This document shows positions 1-45,556 of a stretch of DNA of 46,563 nt, piece by piece; position 1 is the stretch's first letter, and each line of letters starts with the position of its first letter. The notes under the pieces were generated by a model. That model had not been told where the DNA came from. It ran no database searches and saw only the letters and a program-made list of their open reading frames with translations. Both the position numbers and the translations under genes were made by a program. Origin of the DNA: a virus (lineage: Duplodnaviria > Heunggongvirae > Uroviricota > Caudoviricetes); IMG/VR virus record IMGVR_UViG_2861038214_000001, positions 1 through 46,563 of that record. One strand, given 5' to 3'.

Positions 1-201
1 TTACCCATTGGCGCGGCTTAAGAGCTTATTTTTGAATTCACAATGGTCACGATATAACCATCTTGCTCGTCCGTGGATAACTTTGGCTTTAGGCAGGTCG
101 CCGGACTTAATCCGGTCATAGATGAAGGTCTTACCGAAGCCAGTATCGGCCATGATGAATTTCAAATCAACCAGTGAATCAGGCTGTAGTTCGTGTTGCA
201 T
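1..201 (-). CDS. torI: TorI/AlpA-family excisionase-like recombination directionality factor (66 aa)
   Basis: ORF track 1..201; small AlpA/Xis-like DNA-binding protein (…KFIMADTGFGKTFIYDRIKSGDLPKAK…); matches my recollection of KplE1 TorI; GGAG SD upstream. Confidence 0.75.
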   Translation of the reverse strand: MQHELQPDSLVDLKFIMADTGFGKTFIYDRIKSGDLPKAKVIHGRARWLYRDHCEFKNKLLSRANG

Positions 202-220
202 GAGTGCTATCTCCGAATAG

Positions 221-236
221 GGAATCGAACCTGCAA
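221..236. repeat. 16-bp exact copy (GGAATCGAACCTGCAA) of the argW T-arm segment found at 45495..45510; candidate att core duplicate
   Basis: exact 16-mer match read directly in sequence; flanks diverge on both sides. Confidence 0.5.
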
Positions 237-244
237 ATCAGGCA

Positions 245-266
245 ATAAAAAACCGCCATCAGGCGG
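245..266 (-). terminator. intrinsic terminator (GC hairpin CCGCC/GGCGG followed by U-run on minus strand)
   Basis: plus strand shows A-run then hairpin; sits at the end of the early-left operon, upstream of torI. Confidence 0.5.
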
Positions 267-426
267 CTTGGTGTTCTTTCAGTTCTTCAATTCGAATATT
301 GGTTACGTCTGCATGTGCTATCTGCGCCCATATCATCCAGTGGTTATAGCAGTCGTTGATGTCCTCTGCTTCGATAACCCTGTTGAATGGTTCTCCATTC
401 CATTCACCTGTGACTCGGAAGTGCAT
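259..426 (-). CDS. small hypothetical phage protein (55 aa, MHFRVTGEWNGEPFNRVIEAEDIN…)
   Basis: own translation of minus strand; GGAGAT SD 6-7 nt upstream of ATG; below ORF-track size cutoff. Confidence 0.45.
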   Translation of the reverse strand: MHFRVTGEWNGEPFNRVIEAEDINDCYNHWMIWAQIAHADVTNIRIEELKEHQAA

Positions 427-498
427 TTATCATCTCCATAAAACAAAACTCGCCGTAGCGAGTTCAGATAAAAGAAATCCCCGCGAGTGCGAGGATTG

Positions 499-783
499 TT
501 ATTCATTGCCGATATTTACCTTTATCGCGTAAACATTTACCGGTTTATCGCCGAAGTGCGGATGTGTGATTGTCTTGATTTCATATCCGTCATACGGGAC
601 GTCAATTCTGCGGCTGGAATCGTCGCGCTTCGGATATCCCTTTGTGATAATCAGGCGGTCATACTCCCGGAACATAATTCGCTTATTCCAATAGTCATTA
701 CACAGGCGATACTCTTCCGTTTTCTCCCCGCGAATCATGGCATCGAAGTATTCACCTTTGACGGCAAGTTGCAGGTTAGCCAC
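499..783 (-). CDS. hypothetical phage protein (94 aa); start refined to GTG at 783
   Basis: ORF track 499..921 trimmed to internal GTG preceded by GGAGG SD; N-terminal 46 aa of the long ORF overlap the upstream gene and look non-coding. Confidence 0.6.
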   Translation of the reverse strand: MANLQLAVKGEYFDAMIRGEKTEEYRLCNDYWNKRIMFREYDRLIITKGYPKRDDSSRRIDVPYDGYEIKTITHPHFGDKPVNVYAIKVNIGNE

Positions 784-1306
784 GGTTAACCTCCTGCTGC
801 GGTGCTGCTGGCATTTCACGCCAGTGCGTAACTGAGTGCGGATCCGGATATTCGGTGCCATCATCCCAGCGATTGCCATTCCACATTGCAGACCACATCT
901 CACCGTCTTCATACATGACAATTACCGGAATTAACTTATCCGGCATTCGCTCACTACAGCTTATCCAACCATCCGTAGTTACCGGAGAGTTGCCATTTAT
1001 ATCGAAGTTTGGCTCTGCGTCCTGAACCAGGAGGATGTAACCATTCTTGGCTGTATCAAGTTCTAACGCCTCGGTGACGGTGCCGAAATAGCGATTACCT
1101 AAATCAGCATCACAAGTGCTTACATCAATGGAAACTTCCATACCCTCGATTAATTCTGGCAAGTTGTAAGTTTGGCTTACAGGCTCTGCTTCCAGCGATG
1201 CCAGAGCAATTTCATAAGCCCGGCGCTCAATATTGTCTCGCACGTCCAGGCTGCCGATTCGCTCTTTGATTTCTTTAATCAGTTCTTTGTCGGTGAAAGT
1301 GGCCAT
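776..1306 (-). CDS. DUF551-domain phage protein
   Basis: ORF track 776..1339; C-terminal region (DGWISCSERMPDK…WDDGTEYPDPHSVTHWREMP) typical of DUF551; start refined to ATG after AAGGAGAG SD. Confidence 0.7.
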   Translation of the reverse strand: MATFTDKELIKEIKERIGSLDVRDNIERRAYEIALASLEAEPVSQTYNLPELIEGMEVSIDVSTCDADLGNRYFGTVTEALELDTAKNGYILLVQDAEPNFDINGNSPVTTDGWISCSERMPDKLIPVIVMYEDGEMWSAMWNGNRWDDGTEYPDPHSVTHWREMPAAPQQEVNRG

Positions 1307-1307
1307 C

Positions 1308-1799
1308 TCACTCTCCTTTGATGCGAATGCCTGTTGCAATGCTGTTTATGATGCTGTCAGTGCATGGGGTAGAAAGCTGGGCATCTCCAGCAATTTTCAT
1401 GACCTCAACATCTGCATATCGAATACCGAGGTGTATCAGACCGGCTATGCCTGACTTAAGCCGGGCATTTTCCATAAATAGAACTTTTGCCCGCTGTTTT
1501 TCTGCTTCAAGCTCAACGCGCAGCCTCCCAACCGTAAGCGCAATATCCTCGTTCTCCTGGTCGCGGGATTTGATGTATTGCTGGTTTCTTTCCCGTTCAT
1601 CCAGTAGTGCCAAAGCAATCTTGGGATTAAAGGCAGCAATAAATTCAGCGTTGTTTTTCAGAACGTGTTGCGCAATGGCCTGACTACTTAGTCGGACCTC
1701 ATAACCACGTGCGCCACGGTGTGGTTTATATGAGTCCCAGTCTCCCCACGTTGCTTTTTCTGCCGCTTCACGCAGTACCTGATAGTTAATTTTGGTCAT
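1308..1799 (-). CDS. Ead/Ea22-like early phage protein
   Basis: ORF track; coiled-coil-rich early-left operon protein typical of lambdoid ea22-type genes. Confidence 0.6.
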   Translation of the reverse strand: MTKINYQVLREAAEKATWGDWDSYKPHRGARGYEVRLSSQAIAQHVLKNNAEFIAAFNPKIALALLDERERNQQYIKSRDQENEDIALTVGRLRVELEAEKQRAKVLFMENARLKSGIAGLIHLGIRYADVEVMKIAGDAQLSTPCTDSIINSIATGIRIKGE

Positions 1800-1800
1800 A

Positions 1801-2100
1801 TCACATCACCCTGAAGCCGTTGCATTTACGTAAAAAATCGCAGATATAGCCCTTCATTTTTTCGTGCCAATCTCGATCATTCCCATTGCACCAACCATCA
1901 GGTGGAGTCCAGTTTTCTATCAGAGCAGCCATTTTCTTTGCTTTCGCCGGAGTAGCTGTTGCGGTATCGCAGTAATGACGAGTGTCAACCAACGCATCCA
2001 TTCCATCGATATCAAGTACGCAAAACCATGTGTGATTCGGAATTCCTACAGGTGGTATTTGTTGCCCACGTCGGCGTTTATCAATAAGATATACACTCAC
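1801..2100 (-). CDS. hypothetical early phage protein (99 aa)
   Basis: ORF track; GTG start preceded by GGAGGT SD; tight packing with neighbours. Confidence 0.6.
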   Translation of the reverse strand: MSVYLIDKRRRGQQIPPVGIPNHTWFCVLDIDGMDALVDTRHYCDTATATPAKAKKMAALIENWTPPDGWCNGNDRDWHEKMKGYICDFLRKCNGFRVM

Positions 2101-2644
2101 TGGTTACCTCCTTCTCTATTTGCTTAAGACCGTCTCTCACTGCATTAAGTACGCGTTCCAGATACTGGTATTTCGGGTTTGGTGCCGTTGGCCAGTCGGC
2201 ATACCACGGATCATCACCAAAGAGATTCAGCAGTTTGTTACCGACACCGAAACAACAGCAGCTTTCTTTTACGTCATCGGCGTTTTCCGCCTCGTCCCAC
2301 ATTTCTCGAGCCTGTACCGCGTCGATTTCTCTCTCTCTTCGTAACTTTATGATTTCTGACTTCACGAAAAGCAGATTTGCATCGTTGTCATCGTCGACCG
2401 TGCTTCGCAGTTGAGGGTCGAAATAGCCGATTAGATACTCGTTGCTGACCCGCTTAATGAACGTCTGCACATCATCACCGCCCATAGCAAACCAAGCCGC
2501 AGTCCACGCTTTTCCGTAGCAGGTGATGGTGATTCTTCCCTTACCAGGTTCGTAGTTTTCAATCATCACTCTAACCGGATCTAGTCGCTCTGCACCGGTT
2601 ATAACGAATGACAACACATCAATCTTTTCAACCGTTACACTCAC
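2081..2644 (-). CDS. hypothetical early phage protein (187 aa)
   Basis: ORF track; GTG start with AAAGGAGG SD; operon context. Confidence 0.6.
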   Translation of the reverse strand: MSVTVEKIDVLSFVITGAERLDPVRVMIENYEPGKGRITITCYGKAWTAAWFAMGGDDVQTFIKRVSNEYLIGYFDPQLRSTVDDDNDANLLFVKSEIIKLRREREIDAVQAREMWDEAENADDVKESCCCFGVGNKLLNLFGDDPWYADWPTAPNPKYQYLERVLNAVRDGLKQIEKEVTSECISY

Positions 2645-3186
2645 TGGTTGCCTCCTTTGCGAAGCTGGTCGGCGAACAAACGTACACCAGACGCTTCACT
2701 GCGTAGAAACTTAACGGCATCATCAAAACCACCTCGTTCTGCGTCGTCTGCTCCGTTGTCGAGGTTATCTGCGTACATCTCTACCCCCTGCGCCCGTACT
2801 TCAGCCAGAAAAGCATCGGTGGCTTGGGTGTCAACACGGATGCTGTCACGCAAGATGAAAAATGCATTGAGCATTCCAGTCTCTGGAACTTCATCCTGAT
2901 ACTTCTCATACGCATCAAGAGCCTTCATCATCTCATGTCCGAATGGTTGAGGGTGCGCAGCCTTCAGCCTTGCATTCTCAGCAGCCAGCGCCGCGCACTT
3001 GGCCTCAAGGTTATCAATCGTGATTCCAGCAGAACGACACTCCCGCAACGCCGTTTCCAGTTTTGATTCAAGTTCACCGAACTTACGGACAAGATATTCA
3101 GCGTTTGTTTCGTTAACCTTTAAATCACTTGGGATGCATTTACCTTTCAGAAAACCATCCATCTCAATTAGTGTAATTTGTTTCAT
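2641..3186 (-). CDS. hypothetical early phage protein (about 181 aa)
   Basis: ORF track 2641..3204; start refined to ATG at 3186 that overlaps upstream stop (ATGA coupling). Confidence 0.55.
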
Positions 3187-3347
3187 TTCTTCCCACTCCG
3201 CCACATCGCATTCAGATATTTGTTTTGATTTACTGACGGAAAAGAATTTCTCTTAAGCAATTCCTCTCTCGATGGCATTGGCTTTACGCGTTGGCGAATA
3301 ATCATTTCTGCCGGAAGAATGCCGGGATTGTATGCAAGTCCTCTCAT
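3183..3347 (-). CDS. small hypothetical protein (54 aa, [19 protein letters not shown]…)
   Basis: ORF track 3183..3497 trimmed to ATG preceded by AAGGA SD. Confidence 0.5.
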
Positions 3348-3357
3348 TGTAAATTCC

Positions 3358-3651
3358 TTAGTCATTACTGATAGCGCCATAGCGTGAGCGGTAATTACGC
3401 AGGCGCGGGTCAATTTCAGGGAAGTGGGTATATGTGGCTTTGCGGAATGGTCGGATTGATGTCTGGTAAATTCGCTCGCGTTCTTCTTTCTCTGCAAGCC
3501 ATATACAGTGGCGAAATTCCTTTTCCTCTTTCGTTTCCTGCGGTAGAGACATTATTCGATCGTAGTTTTTTCTGAATTTATCCAGCACCTCCGATACGGA
3601 ATTGCCGGAACAGCGGCGCGGGTCATCCGCACCATACAAAGGCGCTGGCAT
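3358..3651 (-). CDS. hypothetical early phage protein (97 aa)
   Basis: ORF track; operon context. Confidence 0.6.
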
Positions 3652-3674
3652 AATTAAATCCTTATTTTTCTAAA

Positions 3675-4058
3675 TCAGAATGGGATGGAATCGTCGTATA
3701 CAGGAGTGTTCTGCTGGTTACTACTTTGCTGCTGCGGGCCATTTCCTGAAGCTGCAAATCCAATCTTTGCATTCAGTAATTCAAGAGTGATTGATTGACC
3801 ATTTTGCCCCTGATAAATATCAACCCTGATGTTTTCTCCGGTAATTTCAACAATGCCACCTTCAACAAGAACACTACGGTAGTAATCCGCTTGCGCTCCC
3901 GGCTTGGCAAATACAACGGCGCTGTAGTTTGTCCATTCTTTCTTTTTTGTCTGGCGATCGTAATACTGAACTCCAGCACGGATGTTGAATCCGATATTTT
4001 CCCCGGCCTGAAACTCTCTTGCGGGCTTGTTTAGTCTTACAGTAATCGAATGTGCCAT
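3675..4058 (-). CDS. ssb: phage single-stranded DNA-binding protein-like (127 aa, acidic C-terminal tail …DDSIPF)
   Basis: ORF track 3675..4148 trimmed to ATG overlapping erf stop (TAATG); C-terminal DDSIPF is the SSB interaction tail motif. Confidence 0.6.
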   Translation of the reverse strand: MAHSITVRLNKPAREFQAGENIGFNIRAGVQYYDRQTKKKEWTNYSAVVFAKPGAQADYYRSVLVEGGIVEITGENIRVDIYQGQNGQSITLELLNAKIGFAASGNGPQQQSSNQQNTPVYDDSIPF

Positions 4059-4663
4059 TAAGCGGCCGCCCCTTCTAATTCGTCTCGTCTGATGTTGTAA
4101 ACGTCCTGCGCTTTTTGCTGCTCCGGTGTGCCTTCGAGCATCTTCCACGCTTTGGCGAACGCCTGTTTAAGCTCTTCCACGGTGTTTTTCTGCAATGCTG
4201 CGTCAGTGAATGCTTTTAGAACCTGTTCAGGTGTAGGTGATGGTTTTGATTGCTTTGCTGCTGCGTTCTGCTGATGTTTATGCTCGTCTGTATCTGCATC
4301 TTTCGCATCATCAATGCCGAACAAACCATTGAGGCAATACTTGCGTGCATAAGAGCTTGTAGCTCCCGTAACTTGTGCAGAATCCATTCCTTTCTTGCTT
4401 TCTTCCTCTCGTGCAAGAGCGGTTGCCGTATGGCTGTTTTCGCCATCGGTAATAGTTGCCGTGGCTTTCACGTAATACCGATCACCAATCAACACAACTT
4501 CATCGCTGATTGATAAAAACAGGCCATTCAGTAACGGCTTAACGCCTTCAAGAATGTCTTCGCAGCTTCTGTATTTATATTTACCGAATGAGTTGTACTG
4601 ATTCTTTGGCGCGTTCAAATTCTTCTGAATAGCTGCCAGTCTTGCGTAAAATTCTTTGCTCAT
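4058..4663 (-). CDS. erf: Erf-family single-strand annealing recombinase
   Basis: ORF track 4058..4693; MSKEFYARLAAIQKNLNAPKNQYNSFGKYKYRSCEDILEGVKPLL… matches Erf family (P22 Erf-like); start refined to ATG (MSKEF). Confidence 0.85.
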   Translation of the reverse strand: MSKEFYARLAAIQKNLNAPKNQYNSFGKYKYRSCEDILEGVKPLLNGLFLSISDEVVLIGDRYYVKATATITDGENSHTATALAREEESKKGMDSAQVTGATSSYARKYCLNGLFGIDDAKDADTDEHKHQQNAAAKQSKPSPTPEQVLKAFTDAALQKNTVEELKQAFAKAWKMLEGTPEQQKAQDVYNIRRDELEGAAA

Positions 4664-4673
4664 ATGATTGTTC

Positions 4674-4844
4674 TCAGAATGGACACGGCCCAAGGAAATA
4701 ACGCTGATTTAATACTTCGACTCGGGACAAATTAAGGCATACCCGCATTCCTTCGCGGTCGCCATTATGGCGATACCAGAGAGCTTTCTGCGTGTACATG
4801 CGTCTCTGTAACTTGCTCTCCTTCACTGTGGTTGCAAGTGACAT
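4674..4844 (-). CDS. small hypothetical protein (56 aa, MSLATTVKESKLQRRMYTQKALWYRHNGDREG…)
   Basis: own translation; GGAG SD 6 nt upstream; overlaps the next small ORF in another frame. Confidence 0.35.
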   Translation of the reverse strand: MSLATTVKESKLQRRMYTQKALWYRHNGDREGMRVCLNLSRVEVLNQRYFLGPCPF

Positions 4845-4923
4845 GAATATCTCCTTCGTTACCGATTAATTCTTTCATCTGACGAATGAATTCTTCGTCT
4901 GACCAGTTATCTGTAAAACTCAT
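4765..4923 (-). CDS. small hypothetical protein (52 aa, MSFTDNWSDEEFIRQMKELIGNEGDIH…)
   Basis: own translation; ATG overlaps kil stop (ATGA); C-terminal half overlaps previous ORF and may be non-coding. Confidence 0.3.
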   Translation of the reverse strand: MSFTDNWSDEEFIRQMKELIGNEGDIHVTCNHSEGEQVTETHVHAESSLVSP

Positions 4924-5072
4924 TTCCTGCGATACCATGGAAGGTTGATAGCTGATTTCATCTCTTTATTTGCTTCAAGCCACATTTTGGAATCACCAAT
5001 AAATCTGGCTATTACTGCTTTGTTTTGTGCCGCACGAAGCATCTGGTGATTGATGGCTATTTCATTGCGCAT
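4920..5072 (-). CDS. kil: Kil-like host-killing/FtsZ-inhibitor small protein (50 aa)
   Basis: own translation MRNEIAINHQMLRAAQNKAVIARFIGDSKMWLEANKEM…; FIGD-x-KM motif as in lambda Kil; GGAGG SD. Confidence 0.5.
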   Translation of the reverse strand: MRNEIAINHQMLRAAQNKAVIARFIGDSKMWLEANKEMKSAINLPWYRRK

Positions 5073-5191
5073 AACGCCTCCAGTTGTTTCTTTGCTGCTC
5101 TGATTAATTGTTTAACTCGGCGTGATAATTCAGATTCGTGCGGGTAGAAAGCGGACATGACGCCGCTACCCGCGAGCTGAAAGTGCATCAT
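5057..5191 (-). CDS. cIII: CIII-like FtsH-inhibitor small protein (44 aa)
   Basis: ORF track 5057..5296 trimmed to ATG with AAGGAG SD; …PHESELSRRVKQLIRAAKK… resembles the lambda CIII PSESLLERITRKLR core. Confidence 0.5.
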   Translation of the reverse strand: MMHFQLAGSGVMSAFYPHESELSRRVKQLIRAAKKQLEALCAMK

Positions 5192-5256
5192 GGGTAACTC
5201 CTTATATTTGATTGCATAACGAAAACGCCTCGAGTGAAGCGTTATTGGTATGCATA

Positions 5257-5281
5257 TAAAAAAGCCCTCACACTGGAGGGC
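5257..5281 (-). terminator. intrinsic terminator (GCCCTC/GAGGGC hairpin + U-run on minus strand)
   Basis: seen in sequence downstream of the 156-aa moron gene. Confidence 0.5.
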
Positions 5282-5385
5282 AAAGAAGATTTCCAATAAT
5301 CAGAACAAGTCGGCTCCTGTTTAGTTACGAGCGACATTGCTCCGTGTATTCACTCGTTGGAATGAATACACAGTGCTTATTTGTA

Positions 5386-5856
5386 CTAATAAAATACCCA
5401 ATTTTCTGTTTCTTGGTTGTGTCCAAAGTTATATTCAATATCTGGTGTTGATGTATCAATATTCTTCATCCCATCAACAAGAGTTGATACAACAGCCAAA
5501 TCTTGTTTGATTCTCATTAAATGGTATTTCTTCCGGCGCAATAAACTTTCAATGGCAAGTTTCTTCGTTGGGAATGCAAAAGATCTTTCTGCATTTTTTG
5601 CTACTTTCTTAATTGCATATCTATTTTTCCTTTGTTTCCATTCCTGTAACCACTGATTTGGTGCTGGTTTAAAATTAACAATCCAATGCGCAGGAACCAA
5701 CCATGCATAATGCTCTGTCTGATGAAAAGCTATATATTGAAGTGCGAATATTTTTATCCCATCTTCTTCAACTGTCGCCTGGAATCTCCAGAAAACAGGC
5801 ATTCCATCATGTTCAGTTTCTGATTCAGGAAAAGGTACGCTCCATGATTTTGTCAT
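5386..5856 (-). CDS. hypothetical protein (156 aa), AT-rich moron gene
   Basis: ORF track; GAGGTGAG SD; markedly AT-rich relative to flanking phage genes; no family recognised. Confidence 0.6.
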   Translation of the reverse strand: MTKSWSVPFPESETEHDGMPVFWRFQATVEEDGIKIFALQYIAFHQTEHYAWLVPAHWIVNFKPAPNQWLQEWKQRKNRYAIKKVAKNAERSFAFPTKKLAIESLLRRKKYHLMRIKQDLAVVSTLVDGMKNIDTSTPDIEYNFGHNQETENWVFY

Positions 5857-6187: not shown

Positions 6188-6526
6188 CTATGACCATTTT
6201 TTATTTGGATTTCGTTGGTGAGCGTGATTAACAACTCTGTGCATTACATCCTCATATTTTTCATCTTCAATTTTTTCGACATCGCGAGGAAATGGTGTTG
6301 CTAATGCTTTGTCAACTTTGTCCATTGGTTCTTCATTAATCTTATATTCAGGACCGTCATCTATAGCATTAAATCCAGGTGTTACACCGTTTTTTAATGC
6401 ATATGCTATCCTTTTTTCCCATCTCGCTATTCTCCTCCTGTCTCGAGATGTAAGACCTCTATCAGATACTTTTCTGTTTTGTCCGCGGTCAGGATTAACA
6501 TAAATAGTCTTTTTCACCATAAGCAT
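6188..6526 (-). CDS. hypothetical protein downstream of N (about 112 aa; Arg-rich N-terminus)
   Basis: ORF track 6188..6532 (TTG) with likely ATG start a few codons in; position equivalent to lambda ea10. Confidence 0.55.
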   Translation of the reverse strand: MLMVKKTIYVNPDRGQNRKVSDRGLTSRDRRRIARWEKRIAYALKNGVTPGFNAIDDGPEYKINEEPMDKVDKALATPFPRDVEKIEDEKYEDVMHRVVNHAHQRNPNKKWS

Positions 6527-6528
6527 AC

Positions 6529-6834
6529 TCAATAAGCACCGTACGGTAGTTTACTGTACAATTTTATTTTTTGGACTGCATGTATTTTGTTTCCTAACGG
6601 GTTTGAATCTTTGTAATAAATACTTCTATTTTTTCGAACGACTTCTTCTTTCTTCTTGCAGCAAAGGCTTCCTAGTGATGCTGCTTTGTCTGCTCTGACG
6701 CAACCAGAGAGCTTTAGCGCAATTTTTCGCGCCAGTGCTTCATTACTGCGTCGCTCGGCAATAAGTTCTGCTCTGCGAGCTTTGTAGCGGCTTTTTGCCG
6801 TACCTTTGGATTCTTTCCAGACAATGGTTACCAT
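6529..6834 (-). CDS. N: N transcription antiterminator, phage 21-type (arginine-rich motif GTAKSRYKARRAELIAERR)
   Basis: ORF track 6529..6864 trimmed to ATG with AAGGAG SD; ARM matches the phage 21 N peptide from memory. Confidence 0.8.
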   Translation of the reverse strand: MVTIVWKESKGTAKSRYKARRAELIAERRSNEALARKIALKLSGCVRADKAASLGSLCCKKKEEVVRKNRSIYYKDSNPLGNKIHAVQKIKLYSKLPYGAY

Positions 6835-7336: not shown

Positions 7337-7771
7337 TTATTCTTGTTCTCTGGTCAAATTATATAGTTGGAAAACAAGGATGCATATATGAATGAACGAT
7401 GCAGAGGCAATGCCGATGGCGATAGTGGGTATCATGTAGCCGCTTATGCTGGAAAGAAGCAATAACCCGCAGAAAAACAAAGCTCCAAGCTCAACAAAAC
7501 TAAGGGCATAGACAATAACTACCGATGTCATATACCCATACTCTCTAATCTTGGCCAGTCGGCGCGTTCTGCTTCCGATTAGAAACGTCAAGGCAGCAAT
7601 CAGGATTGCAATCATGGTTCCTGCATATGATGACAATGTCGCCCCAAGACCATCTCTATGAGCTGAAAAAGAAACACCAGGAATGTAGTGGCGGAAAAGG
7701 AGATAGCAAATGCTTACGATAACGTAAGGAATTATTACTATGTAAACACCAGGCATGATTCTGTTCCGCAT
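7337..7771 (-). CDS. rexB: RexB, membrane component of Rex abortive-infection/exclusion system (144 aa, about 4 TM helices)
   Basis: ORF track; size, hydrophobicity and sequence match lambda RexB as I recall it; position between cI and N. Confidence 0.8.
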   Translation of the reverse strand: MRNRIMPGVYIVIIPYVIVSICYLLFRHYIPGVSFSAHRDGLGATLSSYAGTMIAILIAALTFLIGSRTRRLAKIREYGYMTSVVIVYALSFVELGALFFCGLLLLSSISGYMIPTIAIGIASASFIHICILVFQLYNLTREQE

Positions 7772-25440: not shown

Positions 25441-25453
25441 TCGGGAGCTTTAA

Positions 25454-28818: not shown

Positions 28819-28822
28819 GTAA

Positions 28823-30217: not shown

Positions 30218-30220
30218 AAA

Positions 30221-30658: not shown

Positions 30659-30661
30659 TGC

Positions 30662-31234: not shown

Positions 31235-31357
31235 ACTGGGCGTCTAATGAGGGCTTCTGGCAGGTGATAAGGGAGATCACCGGCGAGGAGTATGCCAGCC
31301 CGGCGCAGTACCGGCAGCGCTACCTTCTCGCCGCGCTCAAAGAAAGAGGTTTCTTCA

Positions 31358-37714: not shown

Positions 37715-37715
37715 C

Positions 37716-38420
37716 ATGCTGGACGATATCATCCGGTCGTATATGTATACGCAATACAACGACGATGACAATCTGCGGGCGTTTTTTACTGCGTATAACT
37801 CGATGGCGCAGGGCATTTATGACTGGATGGTTAATGCCAACCTGCCGATTTTCATCGGTGACTACAACACTGGAGACCAGCTCCGGTGGATTGCCCATGG
37901 CATCTATGGCGTGTTGCCGCCGGTGATTTCCAGCAGCGATCAGCAGGAGATAGGCCCATATAACACCTTCGAATTTAACCAGCTGGCATTCAATGAGTAC
38001 CGGGTGATTGACCAGTCGAACCAGGTTGTTGTCTCCGATGACCTTTTTAAGAGGATCATGACCTGGAATTTTTATAAAGGTGACGGCTTCTATTTCTCTA
38101 TCCCATGGATAAAGCGGCGTATTCTTCGGTTCCTGTTGGGAGTGAATGGCACTGACATTCTCAATGACCAGCGGTGGAGTATATCGATCCAGTTTGTGGA
38201 TGGCGGTATCGTGATATCCATCTATAAGGGGCGGCGTAGGTTCACGCGTAGCGCCATCTACAACGCATCGGCCTATAACTCCAGGAAGTACAACCAGAAG
38301 GATACGGCCTTTGTGATCACCGAGGATTTCGAGTTCGCCATTTTCTTCAAGCAGGCCATGGATAGCGGCCTGCTGCACATGCCGTTCTATCAGTCCATTT
38401 CGGTGGAAATTATTGATTGA
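37716..38420 (+). CDS. tail protein (234 aa), putative fiber attachment
   Basis: ORF track; synteny. Confidence 0.5.
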   Translation: MLDDIIRSYMYTQYNDDDNLRAFFTAYNSMAQGIYDWMVNANLPIFIGDYNTGDQLRWIAHGIYGVLPPVISSSDQQEIGPYNTFEFNQLAFNEYRVIDQSNQVVVSDDLFKRIMTWNFYKGDGFYFSIPWIKRRILRFLLGVNGTDILNDQRWSISIQFVDGGIVISIYKGRRRFTRSAIYNASAYNSRKYNQKDTAFVITEDFEFAIFFKQAMDSGLLHMPFYQSISVEIID

Positions 38421-38478: not shown

Positions 38479-39180
38479 ATGAAAAAATTGGCCCTTCTCG
38501 GATTATTGTCAGTTTCACTATGCACGGGTACTTCCCTTGCAGCTTCATTTGATTGCTCTAAAGCAAAAAGCTTTGCTGAGAAAACAATATGTGAGAACCC
38601 TAAGCTTTCAAAGGATGATGATGACTTAAAATATTTATATGCAAACGCTAAGGCATACACCAAAGACCGGAAGGCGTTTTCTGAGATAACTAAAGCTCTT
38701 TTGGATTCAAGAGAGCGTTGCAGTGATCTCAAGTGTGTTGATGAATGGTATGATACTGCGTTCGCAATTTACGGTGCCATAAAGGAAACTGGCATACCAG
38801 AAACCAATGGCGTAAATGATATATTAAAGAATGAAGGTGCAACAAAACCTTCAGAAATTAAAGAAAAACCCACTGAGATTACAACGCCATCAGCCAAGAA
38901 GCCGAAGGAAAGCAAAAAAGATTTTAGCTTGTACGATTCAAAGGACAGAGCCGCTCCAGTTGAACATAACGCAATATTATACAAAGACACTCCAGAGGCA
39001 TTCGAGTTTATAGATACACTTGTTGGGTTTGTCAGACAAAGCTCTTACAAATGTGACTCTGTTAGCTCTTTCATACCGATGGTTTCATCGAATGGCTTTA
39101 CGCTCGCATGTAATAAATTTAGCTACAAATATGAAATTAAAAATAACGGCGGAAATGTCTCTGTTTCTGTAGATAATTAG
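38479..39180 (+). CDS. secreted DUF1311 (LprI-like N-domain) protein, AT-rich moron
   Basis: ORF track 38413..39180 trimmed to signal peptide MKKLALLGLLSVSLCTGTSLAAS; paired Cys pattern typical of DUF1311; low GC; own terminator. Confidence 0.65.
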   Translation: MKKLALLGLLSVSLCTGTSLAASFDCSKAKSFAEKTICENPKLSKDDDDLKYLYANAKAYTKDRKAFSEITKALLDSRERCSDLKCVDEWYDTAFAIYGAIKETGIPETNGVNDILKNEGATKPSEIKEKPTEITTPSAKKPKESKKDFSLYDSKDRAAPVEHNAILYKDTPEAFEFIDTLVGFVRQSSYKCDSVSSFIPMVSSNGFTLACNKFSYKYEIKNNGGNVSVSVDN

Positions 39181-39229
39181 ATCAAAGCCCACGCCAGTGG
39201 GATTTCATAAATAACACATTGATAACATC

Positions 39230-39254
39230 AAACCCGCTTCGGCGGGTTTTTTTT
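39230..39254 (+). terminator. intrinsic terminator (AAACCCGC-TTCG-GCGGG + T8)
   Basis: seen in sequence after moron. Confidence 0.7.
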
Positions 39255-39275
39255 ATGCCTAAATCCGGAGGAGAC

Positions 39276-41423
39276 ATGGCACTAACCCTTTTGGCTACAA
39301 ACAACGCAGAAAGCACGCTGGCTTCTGCTATCAGCGCAACCGACACGTCGCTGATCGTTAGCGCTGGAACTGGTGCCGAGTTCCCTGATGCTGTGGCAGG
39401 CGAGAGTTATTTTAAGCTCACTCTCACCGATGCCGCCACCGGCTCACAGGTTGAGATCGTGAACGTGACAGCTAAGGCTGGAGACATCTTCACGATTGAG
39501 CGTGCGCAGGAAGGAACGCTGGCGCGTGCGTGGGCGGCCAATGATATGGTTGCCAACATGATGACGGCGGACACGCTGAACATTATCGCTCAATATTCCC
39601 AGCAGGCAGCTGCATCAGCAGCACTGGCTGAAGAGTATGCAGATAACGCTTCTGACTACGCACAGAATAAGTTCACGTTCTATAAGACTGCCAGCGATCC
39701 TGATGGCACCATCGCAGGGCTGGCAGCAACTACTGACGGCCAGTCTTTCTGGGTAGCCCAGGGTCCGGATGCGCTTTCTTCTGCATGGCAGTATCAAAAC
39801 AAAGCAGGCGTGGCCGTATTGCAGGCGAAGCAGCCGGGTACAGCGGCCATAACAGGGACAACCCGCGAGTTTCCGACGCTGGCTGCGGCACAGGCTGATG
39901 CTGACGCAGGGAATATACAACCAGGAGCGAAATGCTGGGTGACAAGCGCGGATGATAGCTCTCTTGCAAATGAATATATAAACAACTCCGGAACTTTGCA
40001 GCCTACAGGAGTAATCTCTCCTTCTTCAAAAACAATCGATAATAAAATTAATGAACGCCTCGTCCCAGGTGAATACAGGCCTGGTTATTTCCCGGCCTTC
40101 TTTGACAGGAATGGTATGGTGCCAGCATGGTTTGATGGCGGCAAATTTGATGTGGCAGGACTGGGGCCAAATGTTACACAGGTTGTTTCTGAAATTCCAA
40201 ACGAATGGGCCCAGAAGTTTATCCCGCAAGGAGACTTTTCACCTTATTACTTTCCTTTTTTATATGACCAACAAGGGAACGTATATGCTTGGTTTAATGG
40301 TGGGCTATTCGATGCTCCAGGTCTTGGCCCGGTATTGCAGGAATATGTCAAAAACCTGGTGTCTGGTGGGGAAGTTGATGCGGTACGTTCCTTCATCGAA
40401 GGAGATCAGTACAAGTTCCTTTTCAAAAATAGCCGTATTTTTGCTGGCCAGTCTACCAGCCTAAACATTGCTTTTACCGGCGATTCGTGGACAGAGAAAA
40501 ACACCATTCCTCAGTCTTTAATTAATATTCTTGGTGGTACATACAAAGACCCTGGGTGGATTAGTTGTTCAAACAGAACAGATGGTGTCATGTCTGGAAT
40601 ATCACCAGTAACCGCAACAAACTTTACGAAATATGACGGTGGCAGCAATAACACGAACATTCCGCCGTATGGCTGTGGCCCTGATGGCAACGGATACTAC
40701 AACAACAACACTGTTGGTTCGCTCGTATGGACGGGCGTGACCGTAACAAATCTTTCGGTATTTTACTATGATGGGTCTGGAACGTTCACCATCACCATCG
40801 ACAGCAATGCACCTGTAACAATCACGGGAGGGAATACAGGGACTGCCAAGAAGTATGATTTCAGCGGACTTAGCGCTACTGCACATACGGTGACAATCCA
40901 AAGCACCGGTACTGGTGTTGTTTCCATTCTTGGTATGTATGGTAAAAATAACTCAATATCATCAGGGGTGACTGTATCCAGGATGGGTAATGGAGGAGCA
41001 TTTGCAAGTGACTATTTCAACTTTTCATCATGGATAAAGCCAGTAGCTCAATACCTTGATATAGACCTCCTTTTTATTATTCTTGGAACGAATGACTTCC
41101 GGATGAGTCAGGGGCTAGCTGAGTACAAATCTGGGATTATTGAAATAATTACTAAATATAGAAGCGCAACTCCTGATATTTGCATTTGCCTTATGTCCCC
41201 TGCACAGTGTAACGCCACAGGAACACCCGCACTGTCAGAATACGATAAAGCAATGAGGGAAATAGCGGTTGAATATAATGTAAATTTCATTAGTGGTTAT
41301 CAATTATTCCCCAAAGTGTATAGCAGTTCAGGAGGTGCGTGGGAAGATGCCTTGCATCTTAGCGCCTTGGGCGCATATGTACTAACGAGAAAGATCAAAA
41401 AAGAATTTTTCCTGGGAGCTTAA
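39276..41423 (+). CDS. tailspike/tail fiber with conserved N-terminal anchor domain and C-terminal SGNH/GDSL esterase domain
   Basis: ORF track 39219..41423 trimmed to ATG after GGAGGAG SD; GDS motif (IAFTGDSWTE) and DxxH (WEDALHL) near C-terminus. Confidence 0.75.
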   Translation: MALTLLATNNAESTLASAISATDTSLIVSAGTGAEFPDAVAGESYFKLTLTDAATGSQVEIVNVTAKAGDIFTIERAQEGTLARAWAANDMVANMMTADTLNIIAQYSQQAAASAALAEEYADNASDYAQNKFTFYKTASDPDGTIAGLAATTDGQSFWVAQGPDALSSAWQYQNKAGVAVLQAKQPGTAAITGTTREFPTLAAAQADADAGNIQPGAKCWVTSADDSSLANEYINNSGTLQPTGVISPSSKTIDNKINERLVPGEYRPGYFPAFFDRNGMVPAWFDGGKFDVAGLGPNVTQVVSEIPNEWAQKFIPQGDFSPYYFPFLYDQQGNVYAWFNGGLFDAPGLGPVLQEYVKNLVSGGEVDAVRSFIEGDQYKFLFKNSRIFAGQSTSLNIAFTGDSWTEKNTIPQSLINILGGTYKDPGWISCSNRTDGVMSGISPVTATNFTKYDGGSNNTNIPPYGCGPDGNGYYNNNTVGSLVWTGVTVTNLSVFYYDGSGTFTITIDSNAPVTITGGNTGTAKKYDFSGLSATAHTVTIQSTGTGVVSILGMYGKNNSISSGVTVSRMGNGGAFASDYFNFSSWIKPVAQYLDIDLLFIILGTNDFRMSQGLAEYKSGIIEIITKYRSATPDICICLMSPAQCNATGTPALSEYDKAMREIAVEYNVNFISGYQLFPKVYSSSGGAWEDALHLSALGAYVLTRKIKKEFFLGA

Positions 41424-41425
41424 TA

Positions 41426-42175
41426 ATGCCGATATCAGCTATTTATATAGACGCCACTCTTCCAGTTATCTCTGGAATGAAAACTTTATCTGACTTTGAT
41501 GTGTCAAACTGGTTTATTGGCCTGCCAACCACAGGTGCAACTCCTTATGCTGGTTTCTATTTCGGGGACCCGGTAACAGATATTACTTACGACTCATACG
41601 ATCAAAATAACCCGGCGGTGATTAACGGGACAGTGAATAACACTGGCGGGTTTATTACCGTTAATCCTAGTAACTATCTGGATACAAGGAAGAAAGCAAC
41701 ACTTAGTGTTACCATTTGCGGAGTGGTAAAAAGGAATGCCGCAGCTGGACTGAACTCTCATATGATTGCGGATTATGCAGGAAGCGGCTCTACGGCCAGT
41801 GGCTTTTCTATAGGCTTTGACACCACCGGGCGATTGTTCTGTGTAGCTCAAAATACCGGGCAGTCTGCTGTGTATGCTTATGCTGATTTTCCTTCATCGA
41901 TAGCTGCAGGAAGTCTATTTGCTTTTGTGGCCACTGTTAATCAGGGAGTGGTGGCAATCGATATTTTCAACGCCGCGACCTCCACACTGGTGTCAGCGAC
42001 ATCAACCCTGCCAGGGACAAGGGTTGCTGGCACAAATAACGTACTGATGGGTAGAAAGGTGGATAACAACGTAGAAACATCCAGCAAGTATATTAAGTCA
42101 ACATTGCTAATGAACGGCTCTTTAACTTCTGCTGAAAAAATATCTGTCTCTCAATTTTTACTGGCGATGCAATAA
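41426..42175 (+). CDS. hypothetical protein (249 aa) downstream of tailspike
   Basis: ORF track; Thr/Gly/Asn-rich; possible lectin-like beta-sandwich (weak). Confidence 0.5.
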   Translation: MPISAIYIDATLPVISGMKTLSDFDVSNWFIGLPTTGATPYAGFYFGDPVTDITYDSYDQNNPAVINGTVNNTGGFITVNPSNYLDTRKKATLSVTICGVVKRNAAAGLNSHMIADYAGSGSTASGFSIGFDTTGRLFCVAQNTGQSAVYAYADFPSSIAAGSLFAFVATVNQGVVAIDIFNAATSTLVSATSTLPGTRVAGTNNVLMGRKVDNNVETSSKYIKSTLLMNGSLTSAEKISVSQFLLAMQ

Positions 42176-42179
42176 AGGT

Positions 42180-42419
42180 CTATGCTCTCAGATGTTTGAC
42201 GCATAAGAAGAATTGCAACTTACCACCATCAGTAAGCTCCACCATTATCGTGTTAGTGCCATCTGAAATTTCAGTCCATCCATGTGACTGTAGGACCTCG
42301 TAGTCGATCCCAGGCTTGCTGAGCTTGAGGCCCAGGCCATCGGATTTACGTAGTATTCTGCGAACAAGAGTGTCACTTTTTGTACTCATTTTGGTGGCGG
42401 AGTGTCTTGGATAAAACAT
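42180..42419 (-). CDS. small basic hypothetical protein (70-79 aa), divergent from LexA-box operon
   Basis: ORF track; no convincing SD at either candidate start. Confidence 0.3.
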   Translation of the reverse strand: MFYPRHSATKMSTKSDTLVRRILRKSDGLGLKLSKPGIDYEVLQSHGWTEISDGTNTIMVELTDGGKLQFFLCVKHLRA

Positions 42420-42517
42420 GTATTGATATCAATTATTTGTGTGAAAAGCAATTTAAGAGGCTACCGGAAGATAAAACAAAGTCATCATCAAGTATTGATC
42501 CGACTCTTTGATGAAAC

Positions 42518-42537
42518 TACTGTATATAAAAACAGTA
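42518..42537 (+). promoter_or_regulatory. LexA (SOS) box TACTGTATATAAAAACAGTA
   Basis: perfect CTGT-N8-ACAG with AT-rich spacer, about 18 nt upstream of the 42555 ATG. Confidence 0.7.
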
Positions 42538-42554
42538 TCAATCAGAGGCAGATC

Positions 42555-42794
42555 ATGCACCGTCAGTCAGACATCGCCGCGGCTTTCCGCGAGTCCATTT
42601 TGCGCAGTTCCAAGGGGTTCCAGTACCTTCACACCCGAGACTTCGTTACCGCACTGCTCCTGCGCGGCATCCACTTATCCGAGGTGGAGGCGAACTCCTG
42701 GATCGCACGCGAGCAGACGTATTTCGTCGATAAGACGCCGGACCATAGCGAAAACAGGCTGTGGATGATGGCCAACATGGGGAGGGTTCTGTAA
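42555..42794 (+). CDS. hypothetical protein (79 aa), first gene of LexA-box operon
   Basis: ORF track 42402..42794 trimmed to ATG with AGAGG SD. Confidence 0.55.
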   Translation: MHRQSDIAAAFRESILRSSKGFQYLHTRDFVTALLLRGIHLSEVEANSWIAREQTYFVDKTPDHSENRLWMMANMGRVL

Positions 42795-43111
42795 TGGGCT
42801 TTCCATCACCCGCGACGGACTACACGGAACAGCGATTAACGGTTAACTCGATCTGCAATGTCGGGCCAAATACGCGCCTCTTCGAGCGATCAGGCGGTTA
42901 TGTTGTGCTGGATATCTCCCTGAAGCCATCACAAGGCAGTCAGGTTCTGATCCAGCACGGAGGCGGGACAGAGCTTGCCACGCTGAGAGGAAGGTCGCTG
43001 ATTACCGAAGATGGCGAGGCGATCGAGGGCGAAGCCCTGGACGATGTTGCGGTCATCGGGGTCGTGACATTTACTATCTGCGATGTTCGCTCTGATAATT
43101 CTATTATTTAA
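42794..43111 (+). CDS. UmuD'-like (S24 peptidase-fold) protein lacking N-terminal arm and catalytic Ser/Lys (105 aa)
   Basis: ORF track 42761..43111 trimmed to ATG (TAATG overlap, GGGGAGGG SD); GFPSPATDYTEQR aligns to UmuD GFPSPAADYVEQR; SGGYV replaces SGDSM. Confidence 0.6.
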   Translation: MGFPSPATDYTEQRLTVNSICNVGPNTRLFERSGGYVVLDISLKPSQGSQVLIQHGGGTELATLRGRSLITEDGEAIEGEALDDVAVIGVVTFTICDVRSDNSII

Positions 43112-43122
43112 CTGGGGTATAT

Positions 43123-44154
43123 ATGGCGCTGAAGCTATTAGCCAATAATAACGCAAAGAGTGTGCTCGCTGCGGGTATTAGCGCGTCCGCTACCGTTATT
43201 ACCGTGGGTACTGGAGCGGGGTCATTATTCCCTTCCCCTGTATCTGGGCAGAGTTATTTCAAATTAACGATAACCGACGCGGCCACGAAAACAATTTCTG
43301 AAATTATGCACGTCACGTCTGTATCCGGTGACGTGATGACAGTAATTCGTGGTCAGGAAGGAACTACGGCACGCGTATGGTCAACGAATGACATTGTCGC
43401 GAATTTAATGACCGCCGGATCATTGTTATCATTCCTGCAGATCAGCAATAACCTGTCAGAAATTAAAGATGCCGGTGAGGATGCGATAAATGAAGCCCGT
43501 TATAACCTCGGAATATCTGATTCCTCTGGTTTTGTCGGGCGTTCACTTGGCGCTCCAAAAGCTTTCTATGCAAACGGAACCTATACGCGATCTCCTCTGG
43601 CCCGTTATGCAAAAGTAACGTTGACCGGTGCCGGTGGCGGCGGTGGCGGCTGCCAGGCCTCCAACAATACAGAAACCTTCTCCGGTGCTGGCGGCGGCGC
43701 GGGCGCGACCATTATCGTATGGGTTGACCTGTCTGCTGCCAGTTCTTACGCGATTACTGTCGGCAAGGGTGGTAAGGGCGGAGTTGGCGCAGTAAGTGGT
43801 GCGGATGGTGGTGCTACCTCGTTTGCCAGCCTGTTCTCAGCTCCTGGCGGGAAAGGCGGCGTGAAGTCAGGCGTGTCCAATACCGCCGGCGGCGCCGGAG
43901 GTACGGCGGCGACCGGAGATATCAGGATCAACGGTGGTACCGGCTCAGATGGACAGACAGGCTCAAGCCTTCTGACGGGCAACGGCGGGGCGTCGTATTT
44001 TGGCGGCGGTGGCCGGGCGGGTTCTCAGGCCGGTATTGCTGGCGCAGCTCCCGGATCCGGTGGTGGTGGCGCGTATGACCTCGGGTTTACCGGTACGGCA
44101 TTTACCGGTGGTGATGGTGCTACTGGCATGGCGATCGTGGAAGAATTCGCGTAA
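43123..44154 (+). CDS. second tail fiber/receptor-binding protein: same N-terminal anchor domain, Gly-rich C-terminal domain
   Basis: ORF track; N-terminal about 100 aa align with the 39276 protein. Confidence 0.7.
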   Translation: MALKLLANNNAKSVLAAGISASATVITVGTGAGSLFPSPVSGQSYFKLTITDAATKTISEIMHVTSVSGDVMTVIRGQEGTTARVWSTNDIVANLMTAGSLLSFLQISNNLSEIKDAGEDAINEARYNLGISDSSGFVGRSLGAPKAFYANGTYTRSPLARYAKVTLTGAGGGGGGCQASNNTETFSGAGGGAGATIIVWVDLSAASSYAITVGKGGKGGVGAVSGADGGATSFASLFSAPGGKGGVKSGVSNTAGGAGGTAATGDIRINGGTGSDGQTGSSLLTGNGGASYFGGGGRAGSQAGIAGAAPGSGGGGAYDLGFTGTAFTGGDGATGMAIVEEFA

Positions 44155-44158
44155 TGGC

Positions 44159-45316
44159 TTACACTCCTGCACGACCATCGATGTAATCAGCCCACCACTG
44201 CATCATTTCTCTGCGCTTATCGAGATACTGCGCATGGTTGTAAATACCGCGCACAGATCCGCCGTTGGCATGTGCCAGTTGCACTTCAATAGCGTCAGCA
44301 GGCCATTCGTGCTCGTTCATAATTGTGCTGAATTCATGCCTGAATCCGTGACCGCTTTCCAGACCCTCATAGCCGATTTGTTTGATCACAAGCAATACCG
44401 CGTTCTCGCAGATTGGCTTCTTCTTATCGTTGCGACCGGCAAAAACAAACTCTGATACTGGTTTAGTGATTGAGCTTAGCGTAGTGAGAAGTTCAACCAC
44501 CTGGTCTGACATAGGAACCACATGAATTTTGCGACCCTTCATCACACTGGCGTCGATGGTGATAATCCTGTTTTCAAAATCGACGTTCTTCCATTGCATG
44601 GAACGAAGCTCTTTCGTTCTTAGGGCTGTATAGCGTAAAACCTTGGTCGCAATGAGCGATACGATGCTTCCTGAAAATGTTGCCAGTGCTTTGTTAAATG
44701 CCGGGATCTGGTCTGCAGGAAGAAACGGGAAGTTTTTCTTGCGGTATCCCTTCATGGCGTCAGCAAGGTCAGGTGCCGGGTTATATTTAGCCCTACCAGT
44801 GACAATAGCGTAACGGAAAACCTCGCCACATCTTCTGCGGGCTTTGTTGGCTCGCTCCATTGCACCGCGATCTTCAAATCTGCGGATTACTTCCAGCAGT
44901 TGCATCGGCTCAATATCCAGAATCTCGAGACCGCCGATGATGGGTAAAATGTCGTCATCAAACATTTTGGCAAGTTCAGTCGCATACCCTACAGACCACA
45001 CTTGCTTCTTGTGCTCGTACCATTCCTTGTAAATGGCACTAAAGGAGTTGTTGTTAGACGAAGCCTTTTTCGCTTTTACCGGATCTATGCCAACCGAGAT
45101 GTCTTTCCTCGCAGTCCATGCTTTATCCCTTGCCTCCTGCAAAGTCATAAGCGGATATTTTCCGACAGTCAGGATTTTCTCCTTACCGTCAATCTTGTAG
45201 CGAAGCTGCCATACCTTTTTCCCTGACACAGGGACATAAAGGTACAGGCCATTACCATCGAGAAGGCGGTATGGTTTTTCTTTCGGCTTTGCTGCTTCAA
45301 TCTGCTTAACGGTGAG
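44159..45316 (-). CDS. intS: tyrosine integrase, P4-type (IntS-like, 385 aa from MLTVKQ…)
   Basis: ORF track 44159..45355; DUF4102 arm-binding N-domain; catalytic R…HxxR…Y region; start chosen at internal ATG by analogy to IntS (GTG at 45355 is the alternative). Confidence 0.85.
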   Translation of the reverse strand, partial: LTVKQIEAAKPKEKPYRLLDGNGLYLYVPVSGKKVWQLRYKIDGKEKILTVGKYPLMTLQEARDKAWTARKDISVGIDPVKAKKASSNNNSFSAIYKEWYEHKKQVWSVGYATELAKMFDDDILPIIGGLEILDIEPMQLLEVIRRFEDRGAMERANKARRRCGEVFRYAIVTGRAKYNPAPDLADAMKGYRKKNFPFLPADQIPAFNKALATFSGSIVSLIATKVLRYTALRTKELRSMQWKNVDFENRIITIDASVMKGRKIHVVPMSDQVVELLTTLSSITKPVSEFVFAGRNDKKKPICENAVLLVIKQIGYEGLESGHGFRHEFSTIMNEHEWPADAIEVQLAHANGGSVRGIYNHAQYLDKRREMMQWWADYIDGRAGV

Positions 45317-45480
45317 CATGGGTAAAAATCCGGTGGGTAAAATTATTTTATCCACTTTTTACCCGTCATGGAGTGCGGCTGTCAACGATCTGACGCGAAC
45401 CATTACGAACTGTGAATCTATGGAAGGCTTGCTATTCAGGGGATTTTGCGGACTGGTACGGATGGGAGCGAACTGATAAA
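45317..45480. promoter_or_regulatory. att arm / intS promoter region with GGGTAAAA direct and inverted repeats
   Basis: three GGGTAAAA(A) copies around the int start; candidate integrase arm-type or RDF sites. Confidence 0.4.
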
Positions 45481-45556
45481 TGGTGTCCCCTGCAGGAATC
45501 GAACCTGCAATTAGCCCTTAGGAGGGGCTCGTTATATCCATTTAACTAAGAGGACA
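45481..45556 (-). tRNA. argW: tRNA-Arg (anticodon CCU)
   Basis: minus strand reads GTCCTCTTAGTTAAATGGATATAACGAGCCCCTCCTAAGGGCTAATTGCAGGTTCGATTCCTGCAGGGGACACCA; cloverleaf with CCU anticodon, encoded CCA. Confidence 0.9.
45495..45510. repeat. 16-bp segment of argW T-arm duplicated at 221..236 (candidate att core)
   Basis: exact match seen in sequence. Confidence 0.5.

Follow-up and report, generated by a model that had tools for sequence, protein, structure and literature searches.

Background

The element that we describe here resembles two groups of published systems. The first is the defective prophage KplE1 (also CPS-53) of Escherichia coli K-12, which lies at the tRNA gene argW and uses a 16-nt recombination core (CTGCAGGGGACACCAT) (PMC2951348). 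The KplE1 module has been shown to be excision competent, with excision requiring the integrase IntS, the recombination directionality factor (excisionase) TorI and IHF (PMC2951348, PMC3509656); its attL arm contains the arm-type IntS sites, the TorI sites and the intS promoter (PMC2951348), and the module is strongly conserved in HK620, Sf6, CUS-3 and the APEC-O1 and UTI89 prophages, all of which use argW (PMC2951348, PMC3509656). The second is the group of Klebsiella phage vB_Kpn_Chronis (Chronis; Chronisvirus chronis) and phages RothC/RothD, classified as Felixviridae, subfamily Maevirinae (ratified by the virus taxonomy committee ICTV in 2025; PMC12451628). Members of this family are temperate and have a conserved structural core of about 20 kb (RothC gp1-gp24), the remainder of the genome being variable, and prophages matching them are confined to Enterobacteriaceae (bioRxiv 10.1101/2024.12.02.626457).

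We analysed a 46,563-nt stretch of DNA (hereafter the window), positions 1 to 46,563 of the IMG/VR virus record IMGVR_UViG_2861038214_000001. Very probably it contains a temperate myovirus prophage of 45.6 kb that seems intact, is inserted in the 3' end of argW of E. coli isolate WI1 and is built as a three-part mosaic. As judged from alignments, the parts are the IntS/TorI/core module, an E. coli lambdoid early and lysis region, and a 21-kb virion block of the Chronis type. We regard the element as an ordinary mosaic temperate phage of the Felixviridae type and not as the lost ancestor of KplE1.

Results and discussion

Boundaries and insertion site

The window matches positions 1409529-1456091 of the WI1 chromosome (NZ_LT838196.1; a clinical isolate from France) at 100% identity, and we used this source genome to extend the window by 2 kb on its left (region L001, in which coordinates are window coordinates plus 2000). 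The integration target, argW, encodes tRNA-Arg(CCT) on the minus strand at 45481-45555 (ARAGORN; Rfam tRNA, 63.4 bits) and is identical to argW of K-12 (alignment A2), with yfdC beyond it (45631-46563) and dsdC immediately past the left window edge. The int-proximal att core, ATGGTGTCCCCTGCAG, lies at 45480-45495 and overlaps the 3' end of argW, which in WI1 has been rebuilt from phage-borne sequence; it is the published core of KplE1 in reverse complement. The distal core, also ATGGTGTCCCCTGCAG, is found at L001 1912-1927 (73-88 bp left of window base 1), and the window, which is cut at the torI stop codon, therefore misses the distal att. The core occurs exactly twice in L001, against 0.01 copies expected from shuffles, and this duplicated-core boundary pattern is not due to chance.

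With one core copy counted, the element measures 45,568 bp between dsdC and argW. Joining the two flanks at the core restores an empty attB (500 of 500 nt matched, uninterrupted and at 100% identity in several genomes); because the core is duplicated and the flanks rejoin to an empty site, the segment is a true insertion. For site occupancy and module counts we used a set of 5,426 complete E. coli genomes, 911 of which (17%) contain at least 80% of the joined 500-nt sequence as a single piece. The first-pass annotation had drawn the element from 1 to 45556: the element is real, but its left core lies outside the window and its right boundary at 45480-45495.

A separate observation concerns the site itself: the argW-dsdC junction is occupied or rearranged in most E. 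coli strains, being intact in only 17%.

The recombination module

All the components of a KplE1-type module (an IntS-like integrase, TorI at the opposite end and a duplicated 16-nt core) were found in the element. The tyrosine integrase gene intS (44159-45319, minus strand, 386 aa; Pfam Arm-DNA-bind_3, Phage_int_M and Phage_integrase) encodes a protein with 97.7% amino acid identity to K-12 IntS, 97.4% to Sf6 Int and 85% to Chronis gp27. At the other end of the prophage lies torI (1-201, minus strand, 66 aa; torI in the PGAP annotation), the recombination directionality factor, whose product is 100% identical to K-12 TorI and Sf6 gp18 and 86% identical to Chronis gp29. The first-pass annotation was thus right to place an IntS-like integrase beside argW and a TorI-like directionality factor at the opposite end. 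The phage-side arm of the int-proximal att (attL in the KplE1 literature), at 45320-45479, differs from its K-12 counterpart by about six mismatches over about 160 nt and has the same gene layout (alignment A2), and both att arms are near-identical to those of K-12 and Sf6 (alignments A1 and A2). To integrate, IntS would act on two identical cores, that of the phage and that of argW, and recombine them.

Two junctions delimit the module. The final eight or so codons of intS (44159-44187) are of the Chronis type (WWADYIDGRAG) and not of the K-12/Sf6 type (WWADWLDEKV), and K-12 homology on the int side begins at 44187, which places a mosaic junction at about 44187, within the 3' end of the integrase gene. 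On the other side, an intrinsic terminator at 250-269 (minus strand; terminator scan), which closes the early-left operon, marks the junction with the torI module: K-12 homology stops at 251, and the contexts upstream vary among relatives.

The virion module

Positions 18882-40009 align with Chronis 1-20652 and 45223-45702 at 92.7-95.6% nucleotide identity over about 21 kb, and the same module is about 94% identical to RothC/RothD (Klebsiella phages of the genus Nakavirus). From TerL through the final baseplate protein, all 23 gene products are full length, with 85-100% amino acid identity to those of Chronis (MN013086), a cultured, plaque-forming phage from sewage; the Felixviridae structural core of about 20 kb is therefore represented in the window. 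A megablast search for near-identical sequences in a collection of 50,697 phage records matched the virion module to no E. coli phage.

The genes of this block all lie on the plus strand. The small terminase subunit (18618-19358; PHROG 370 terS, 2e-84) is full length at 69% identity to its Chronis counterpart, and the large subunit (19362-20693; PHROG 2 terL) is 99.3% identical to Chronis gp1. The head module (20705-26485; PHROG and Pfam matches) is full length at 90-99.6% identity to Chronis gp2-gp6 and comprises the portal (20705-22120, 471 aa; Pfam Phage_portal_3, PHROG 146), a MuF-like head-morphogenesis protein encoded between the portal gene and 22951, a 537-aa fusion of NUDIX, prohead-protease-like/DUF2213 and Lys/Glu/Ala-rich scaffold-like parts (22951-24564; Pfam NUDIX and DUF2213), a 286-aa head protein between 24564 and 25454, and the major capsid protein (25454-26485). 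The fusion, which is 99.6% identical to Chronis gp4, has an intact NUDIX box (GTIEPGE...REVLEETGY), which suggests that it is a NUDIX hydrolase either built into the capsid or set free within it.

The connector, tail and tape-measure region (26558-33238; 85-99% identical to Chronis gp7-gp14) begins with head-tail connector proteins (from 26558) and continues with the tail sheath (28823-30217; PHROG 205), a probable tail tube (30221-30658), a probable chaperone between the tube and the tape measure, and a tape measure with a lytic transglycosylase domain (31292/31358-33238; lytic tail protein PHROGs). The baseplate module (33238-38420; 97-100% identical to Chronis gp15-gp21) contains the hub (34220-35257; PHROG 196), a baseplate-J-like wedge (36296-37714; PHROG 6) and five small proteins. 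The sheath, tube, hub and wedge genes together predict a contractile tail. The first-pass annotation had called the regulatory, replication, lysis and structural genes lambdoid; this description suits the first three (see below) and fails for the structural genes, which form a Chronis-type myovirus module.

Chronis also resembles the element in overall design. Its genome is of near-equal size (45.7 kb), its genes follow the same order as in the window (terL through the tail genes to small genes, int, attP, xis, early-left genes, repressor, replication, nin, lysis and terS), and its IntS/TorI-type int (85% identity) and xis (86%) likewise flank attP. Chronis differs in its Klebsiella host, in its early, immunity, replication and lysis DNA, which is largely unrelated to that of the window, in the C-termini of its receptor-binding proteins, in lacking RexAB and in carrying a tRNA-Asn. 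We estimated intergenomic similarity with our own VIRIDIC-like script (not VIRIDIC itself), taking 70% as the genus line and 45% as the subfamily line. The element is 48% similar to Chronis and 41% to RothC, values that straddle the 45% line, and Chronis and RothC are 49% similar to one another. Because 48% and 41% are below 70%, the element lies outside Chronisvirus and Nakavirus, which suggests a genus of its own at roughly the distance of a subfamily.

The early, immunity, replication and lysis region

From 252 to about 17809 the element is a patchwork of lambdoid DNA, of which HF4s, CUS-3, HK446, HK544, HK97, HK022, Kapi1 and others each cover 33-49% at about 95-97% identity. Its gene order is lambdoid: early-left recombination genes, N (inferred), cI, cro, cII, O, helicase, nin, Q, lysis and late genes. 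The CI-type repressor (8739-9386, minus strand, 215 aa; Pfam HTH_3 and Peptidase_S24) is of the LexA family; the CI repressor of phage lambda has 237 aa. It retains an Ala-Gly cleavage site (VQAG) and the Ser (GHSM) and Lys (FKKY) of the catalytic dyad, and is therefore predicted to be cleavable through the SOS response and RecA. Directly downstream of cI, arranged as in lambda, are rexA (7787-8626, minus strand; Pfam RexA, 3e-97; PADLOC RexA) and rexB (7337-7771, minus strand; Pfam RexB, 8.5e-92; PADLOC RexB), and the Rex pair appears to travel with differing immunity regions. Two small arginine-rich proteins are encoded at 6188-6834 (minus strand; seen in the translations), with no Pfam match for either; we infer that the one at 6529-6834, the first gene leftward of the immunity region, is an N-type antiterminator.

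On the plus strand are a cro-like helix-turn-helix regulator (9495-9713; Pfam HTH_3), cII (9831-10127; 'CII family' in the PGAP annotation), an O-like replication initiator (10308-11138; PGAP) and a DnaB-type replicative helicase (11135-12511; PGAP). Within the initiator gene, four iterons of about 20 nt (10652-10741; repeat family D1) followed by an A/T-rich stretch mark an internal origin. The nin region (from 12584, plus strand; PGAP) encodes NinB, NinE, NinF, NinG and a Ser/Thr phosphatase, and is followed by the late antiterminator Q (15544-16062, plus strand; Pfam Phage_antitermQ, 1e-25) and by a lysis cassette (16571-17809, plus strand; PGAP) of lambda-family holin, GH24 endolysin and Rz-type spanin, the last 52% identical to Chronis gp71.

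How complete is the phage?

All 67 of the 67 annotated coding sequences are open, without internal stops, and 64 of them lie uninterrupted between torI and intS, in keeping with the earlier suggestion of an apparently intact mosaic prophage at argW. We infer from the families to which its genes belong that the element can undergo SOS induction, excision, packaging and particle production. RecA-stimulated autocleavage of CI would derepress the early operons, antitermination by N and then Q would extend transcription, and O together with DnaB would replicate the phage from the iteron origin. IntS, TorI and IHF would excise the prophage, terminase would fill a capsid of the DUF2184 type that is then joined to the contractile tail, and holin, endolysin and spanin would lyse the host. 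Released particles would adsorb through an esterase tailspike and a second, glycine-rich fibre (both described below), and during lysogeny RexAB would exclude other phages.

The strongest competing explanation, which we consider rather unlikely, is that of a cryptic prophage that looks complete and is no longer inducible or infectious, owing to regulatory or missense defects or to incompatible modules. Intactness is, after all, judged from the sequence, the modules derive from different host genera, the integrase has a hybrid C-terminus and one pseudogene fragment is present. The first 25 kb of the window are at least 80% covered only in the source genome, and the exact combination has thus not been seen to spread. 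Against this, in addition to the 67 open coding sequences, stand the virion proteins, full length and 85-100% identical to those of a plaque-forming phage; att sites, int and torI essentially identical to those of an excision-competent system (PMC2951348); intact cI autocleavage motifs; and the absence of insertion sequence (IS) elements among the annotated genes. Related prophages with the same late half are, moreover, present in 31-42 genomes, the origins of which (human, pig, dog and wastewater) are varied: 31 genomes match at least 80% of the late half together with intS and argW, and the virion module occurs in 48 of the 5,426, at a coverage of at least 80% in 42 of those 48.

Several points weigh against an intact, functional phage and temper our confidence in it. 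The WI1 prophage is described here from its sequence, and point mutations that inactivate a gene and keep its frame may remain. Function is assigned to only part of the virion proteins. The product of 6529-6834 (MVTIVWKESKGTAKSRYKARRAELIAERR...), which resembles the N protein of phage 21, is a putative N on the grounds of its position and sequence similarity. A non-essential DUF551 pseudogene fragment lies at 1175-1306 (PGAP). The distal att lies outside the window and was taken from the source genome record, and the last eight or so residues of IntS are of the Chronis type, an exchange that may affect integrase function.

Relation to KplE1

The K-12 argW element is a 10.2-kb remnant, correctly described as short in the first-pass annotation, which went on to propose that the window may offer a rare glimpse of the complete phage that gave rise to defective KplE1. 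The resemblance behind this idea is genuine: both elements are inserted in argW between yfdC and dsdC, with the same 16-nt core, near-identical att arms, IntS and TorI, and with torI and intS flanking att. The proposed alignment to the K-12 argW-dsdC region returned homology only at the ends, however, and low identity to KplE1 genes, which had been named in advance as evidence against the proposal, is what we found, and the progenitor idea fails by it. By blastn, L001 is homologous to the K-12 region up to window position 251 (the dsdC side and torI, 99.5%) and again from 44187 on (intS, argW and yfdC, 98.5%); the remaining homology amounts to a short patch of 125 nt (85.6%) and another of 105 nt (71%). 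By tblastn, three of the 67 proteins match the K-12 region, namely TorI, IntS and a 40-residue N-terminal stretch matching yfdS. KplE1-like thus describes the recombination module and nothing else in the element.

KplE1 for its part lacks repressor, replication, lysis and virion genes, and its interior is SfIV/SfV-like, whereas the element in the window is 45.6 kb long, looks complete and has none of the KplE1 interior. The interior genes of KplE1 (the gtr operon by int, the tfaS/yfdK/yfdL tail fibre and yfdM to yfdT) show no DNA homology to the window beyond the short patches. The interior of K-12 CPS-53 matches SfIV (68% coverage at 93% identity), SfV and SfII, and is not in the window; this phage is therefore not the progenitor of KplE1. 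We accordingly find it highly improbable that KplE1/CPS-53 is the decayed form of a phage preserved intact in this element: about 8.5 kb of the K-12 interior (yfdG to ypdJ) has no counterpart in the element, the SfIV/SfV/SfII-like portion of K-12 includes the gtr genes by int as well as yfdM to yfdT of the early genes, the window phage lacks a gtr operon and differs in its tail-fibre system, and the recombination module that the two elements share is a cassette common to many unrelated phage backbones (PMC2951348). In our comparison, the element and KplE1 have a portable integration cassette in common and nothing else. Nor is the view a rare one, since the int region is matched by 142 phage records (including Sf6, CUS-3, HK633, IME10, HF4s and 74 Stx2a phages) and conservation of the module had already been published.

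A 16-nt argW T-arm copy upstream of torI

Sixteen nucleotides of the argW T-arm are repeated exactly at 221-236, 19 nt upstream of the torI ATG (second copy at 45495-45510; repeat family D19), right after the terminator and within the torI leader, in the putative PtorI region. The 16-mer is exact in 44 of 50 distinct torI upstream sequences from IMG/VR, and is found upstream of torI in K-12 and in the free phage Sf6 and not in Chronis. In Sf6 it overlaps two annotated features, the promoter 'pI' and the boundary sequence 'bsq2'; a simple sigma-70 scan of the window gave no promoter at 221-236. In argW the 16-mer abuts the 16-nt att core, and the torI cassette thus seems to split a 31-nt segment of the tRNA 3' end. 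We considered the pair 221-236/45495-45510 as the true att boundary and rejected it, because the repeat does not run on into the tRNA 3' end and travels with torI.

One could imagine that the 16-mer is a functional promoter or leader element of torI (for example a core-type IntS site or decoy that couples the directionality factor to integrase occupancy), or the vestige of an older T-loop attP, but we hold this to be improbable. Still less credible is a tandem composite, in which the T-arm repeats would delimit a full phage and an earlier KplE1-type remnant would have left torI and the distal core behind: torI is indeed separated from the rest of the phage by an exact direct repeat of 16 nt, with a chance expectation of about 1e-3 by our own arithmetic, but a displaced copy left by tRNA integration should run into the tRNA 3' end, whereas the repeat at 221-236 runs into unrelated sequence, the 16-mer precedes torI in Sf6, K-12 and the 44 IMG/VR leaders and is therefore part of the module and not a strain-specific junction, the annotated genes of the element include no second excisionase, and in Chronis the xis gene is likewise placed with respect to attP and int.

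Modularity and comparison with other phages

A single mosaic phage with a portable integration cassette, as we read the WI1 element, has partial counterparts in several directions. The P22-like podoviruses Sf6, HK620 and CUS-3, which also use argW, have the same IntS/TorI/attP module, and share parts of the early region as well (42% coverage at 96% identity in CUS-3, for example), with an erf/abc2-type recombination region; these phages differ in having P22-like short-tailed virions without contractile-tail genes, and Sf6 also in carrying an O-antigen acetylase next to int. Siphoviruses of the HK97/HK022/HK446 type and lambda resemble the element in early gene order (cI/cro/cII, O, DnaB-type helicase, nin, Q and S/R/Rz) and in many segments at 95-97% nucleotide identity, but have another integrase and site, and HK97- or lambda-type heads and non-contractile tails, neither of which is found in the element. 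The virion module, too, occurs in other settings. In E. coli cS100a (L005; NZ_CM176582.1, 1999506-2046452) it adjoins yecD/aspS and not argW, in an element with a Klebsiella-like early region, a tRNA-Gly, an HP1-family holin and no IntS; because site and early region both differ, this block combines with more than one kind of integration and early module.

It follows from these comparisons that the nature of a prophage is not revealed by the identity of its integrase and tRNA site. The IntS/TorI cassette is portable, occurring on podovirus (Sf6, HK620 and CUS-3), Stx-phage, SfV-like (KplE1) and, here, Felixviridae backbones. The prophage leaves current understanding unchallenged, the IntS/TorI module being already known from live phages; what it adds is a complete-looking E. 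coli representative of the Felixviridae, whose cultured members infect only Klebsiella and Pantoea, and which, if the WI1 prophage proves inducible, would provide a model of the family tractable in E. coli. The identity of about 95% over 21 kb between Klebsiella and E. coli elements, with receptor-binding domains and early regions exchanged, is a clean case of recent module exchange between genera.

Other features

The early-left (pL-side) accessory genes (259-5856, minus strand; PGAP) show patchy nucleotide identity of 92-98% to E. coli lambdoid phages (HF4s, CUS-3, the HK97 family and others) and encode ASCH, DUF551, Ea22-like and DUF2737 proteins, the anti-RecBCD protein Abc2, the Erf recombinase, Kil and several uncharacterised products. 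A PADLOC defence scan of the window found RexA/RexB and a weak match in the NUDIX region (PDC-S07, 3e-5), and an Rfam scan of the window found no RNA family besides the argW tRNA. ARAGORN reported an 83-nt tRNA-Ala(CGC) at 9106-9188 (minus strand), inside cI, which we set aside as a false positive, having no Rfam tRNA match at the gathering score. We likewise rejected the PGAP/RefSeq name 'anti-CBASS protein Acb1 family' for 20705-22120 on the strength of the Phage_portal_3 and PHROG portal matches; it is probably an annotation artefact carried across related prophages.

The receptor-binding region (38479-41423, plus strand; PHROG tail-fibre families) encodes a 233-aa protein and then a 715-aa tailspike with an SGNH/GDSL esterase domain (39276-41423, plus strand; Pfam Lipase_GDSL_2). 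Residues 1-258 of the tailspike form a Chronis-like anchor, and homology to Chronis ends inside the gene at 40009; the C-terminal part, with the esterase domain, is not found in Chronis, and its exchange looks like a host-range swap. The late-end accessory genes that follow (41426-44154, plus strand; PHROGs 3469, 863 and 6427, with partial homology to Chronis gp25-26) encode, from 41426, a 249-aa protein of unassigned function and a 79-aa protein, then a UmuD-like/S24 fragment (42794-43111, 105 aa) and the second, glycine-rich tail fibre (43123-44154; Pfam Gly_rich_2), all on the plus strand. The N-termini of the tailspike and of the glycine-rich fibre match the same PHROG anchors (6427, 25419, 30299, 8469 and 19311), and these common anchor families suggest a baseplate with two kinds of receptor-binding protein. 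The UmuD-like S24 fragment and two small open reading frames lie between the genes for the two.

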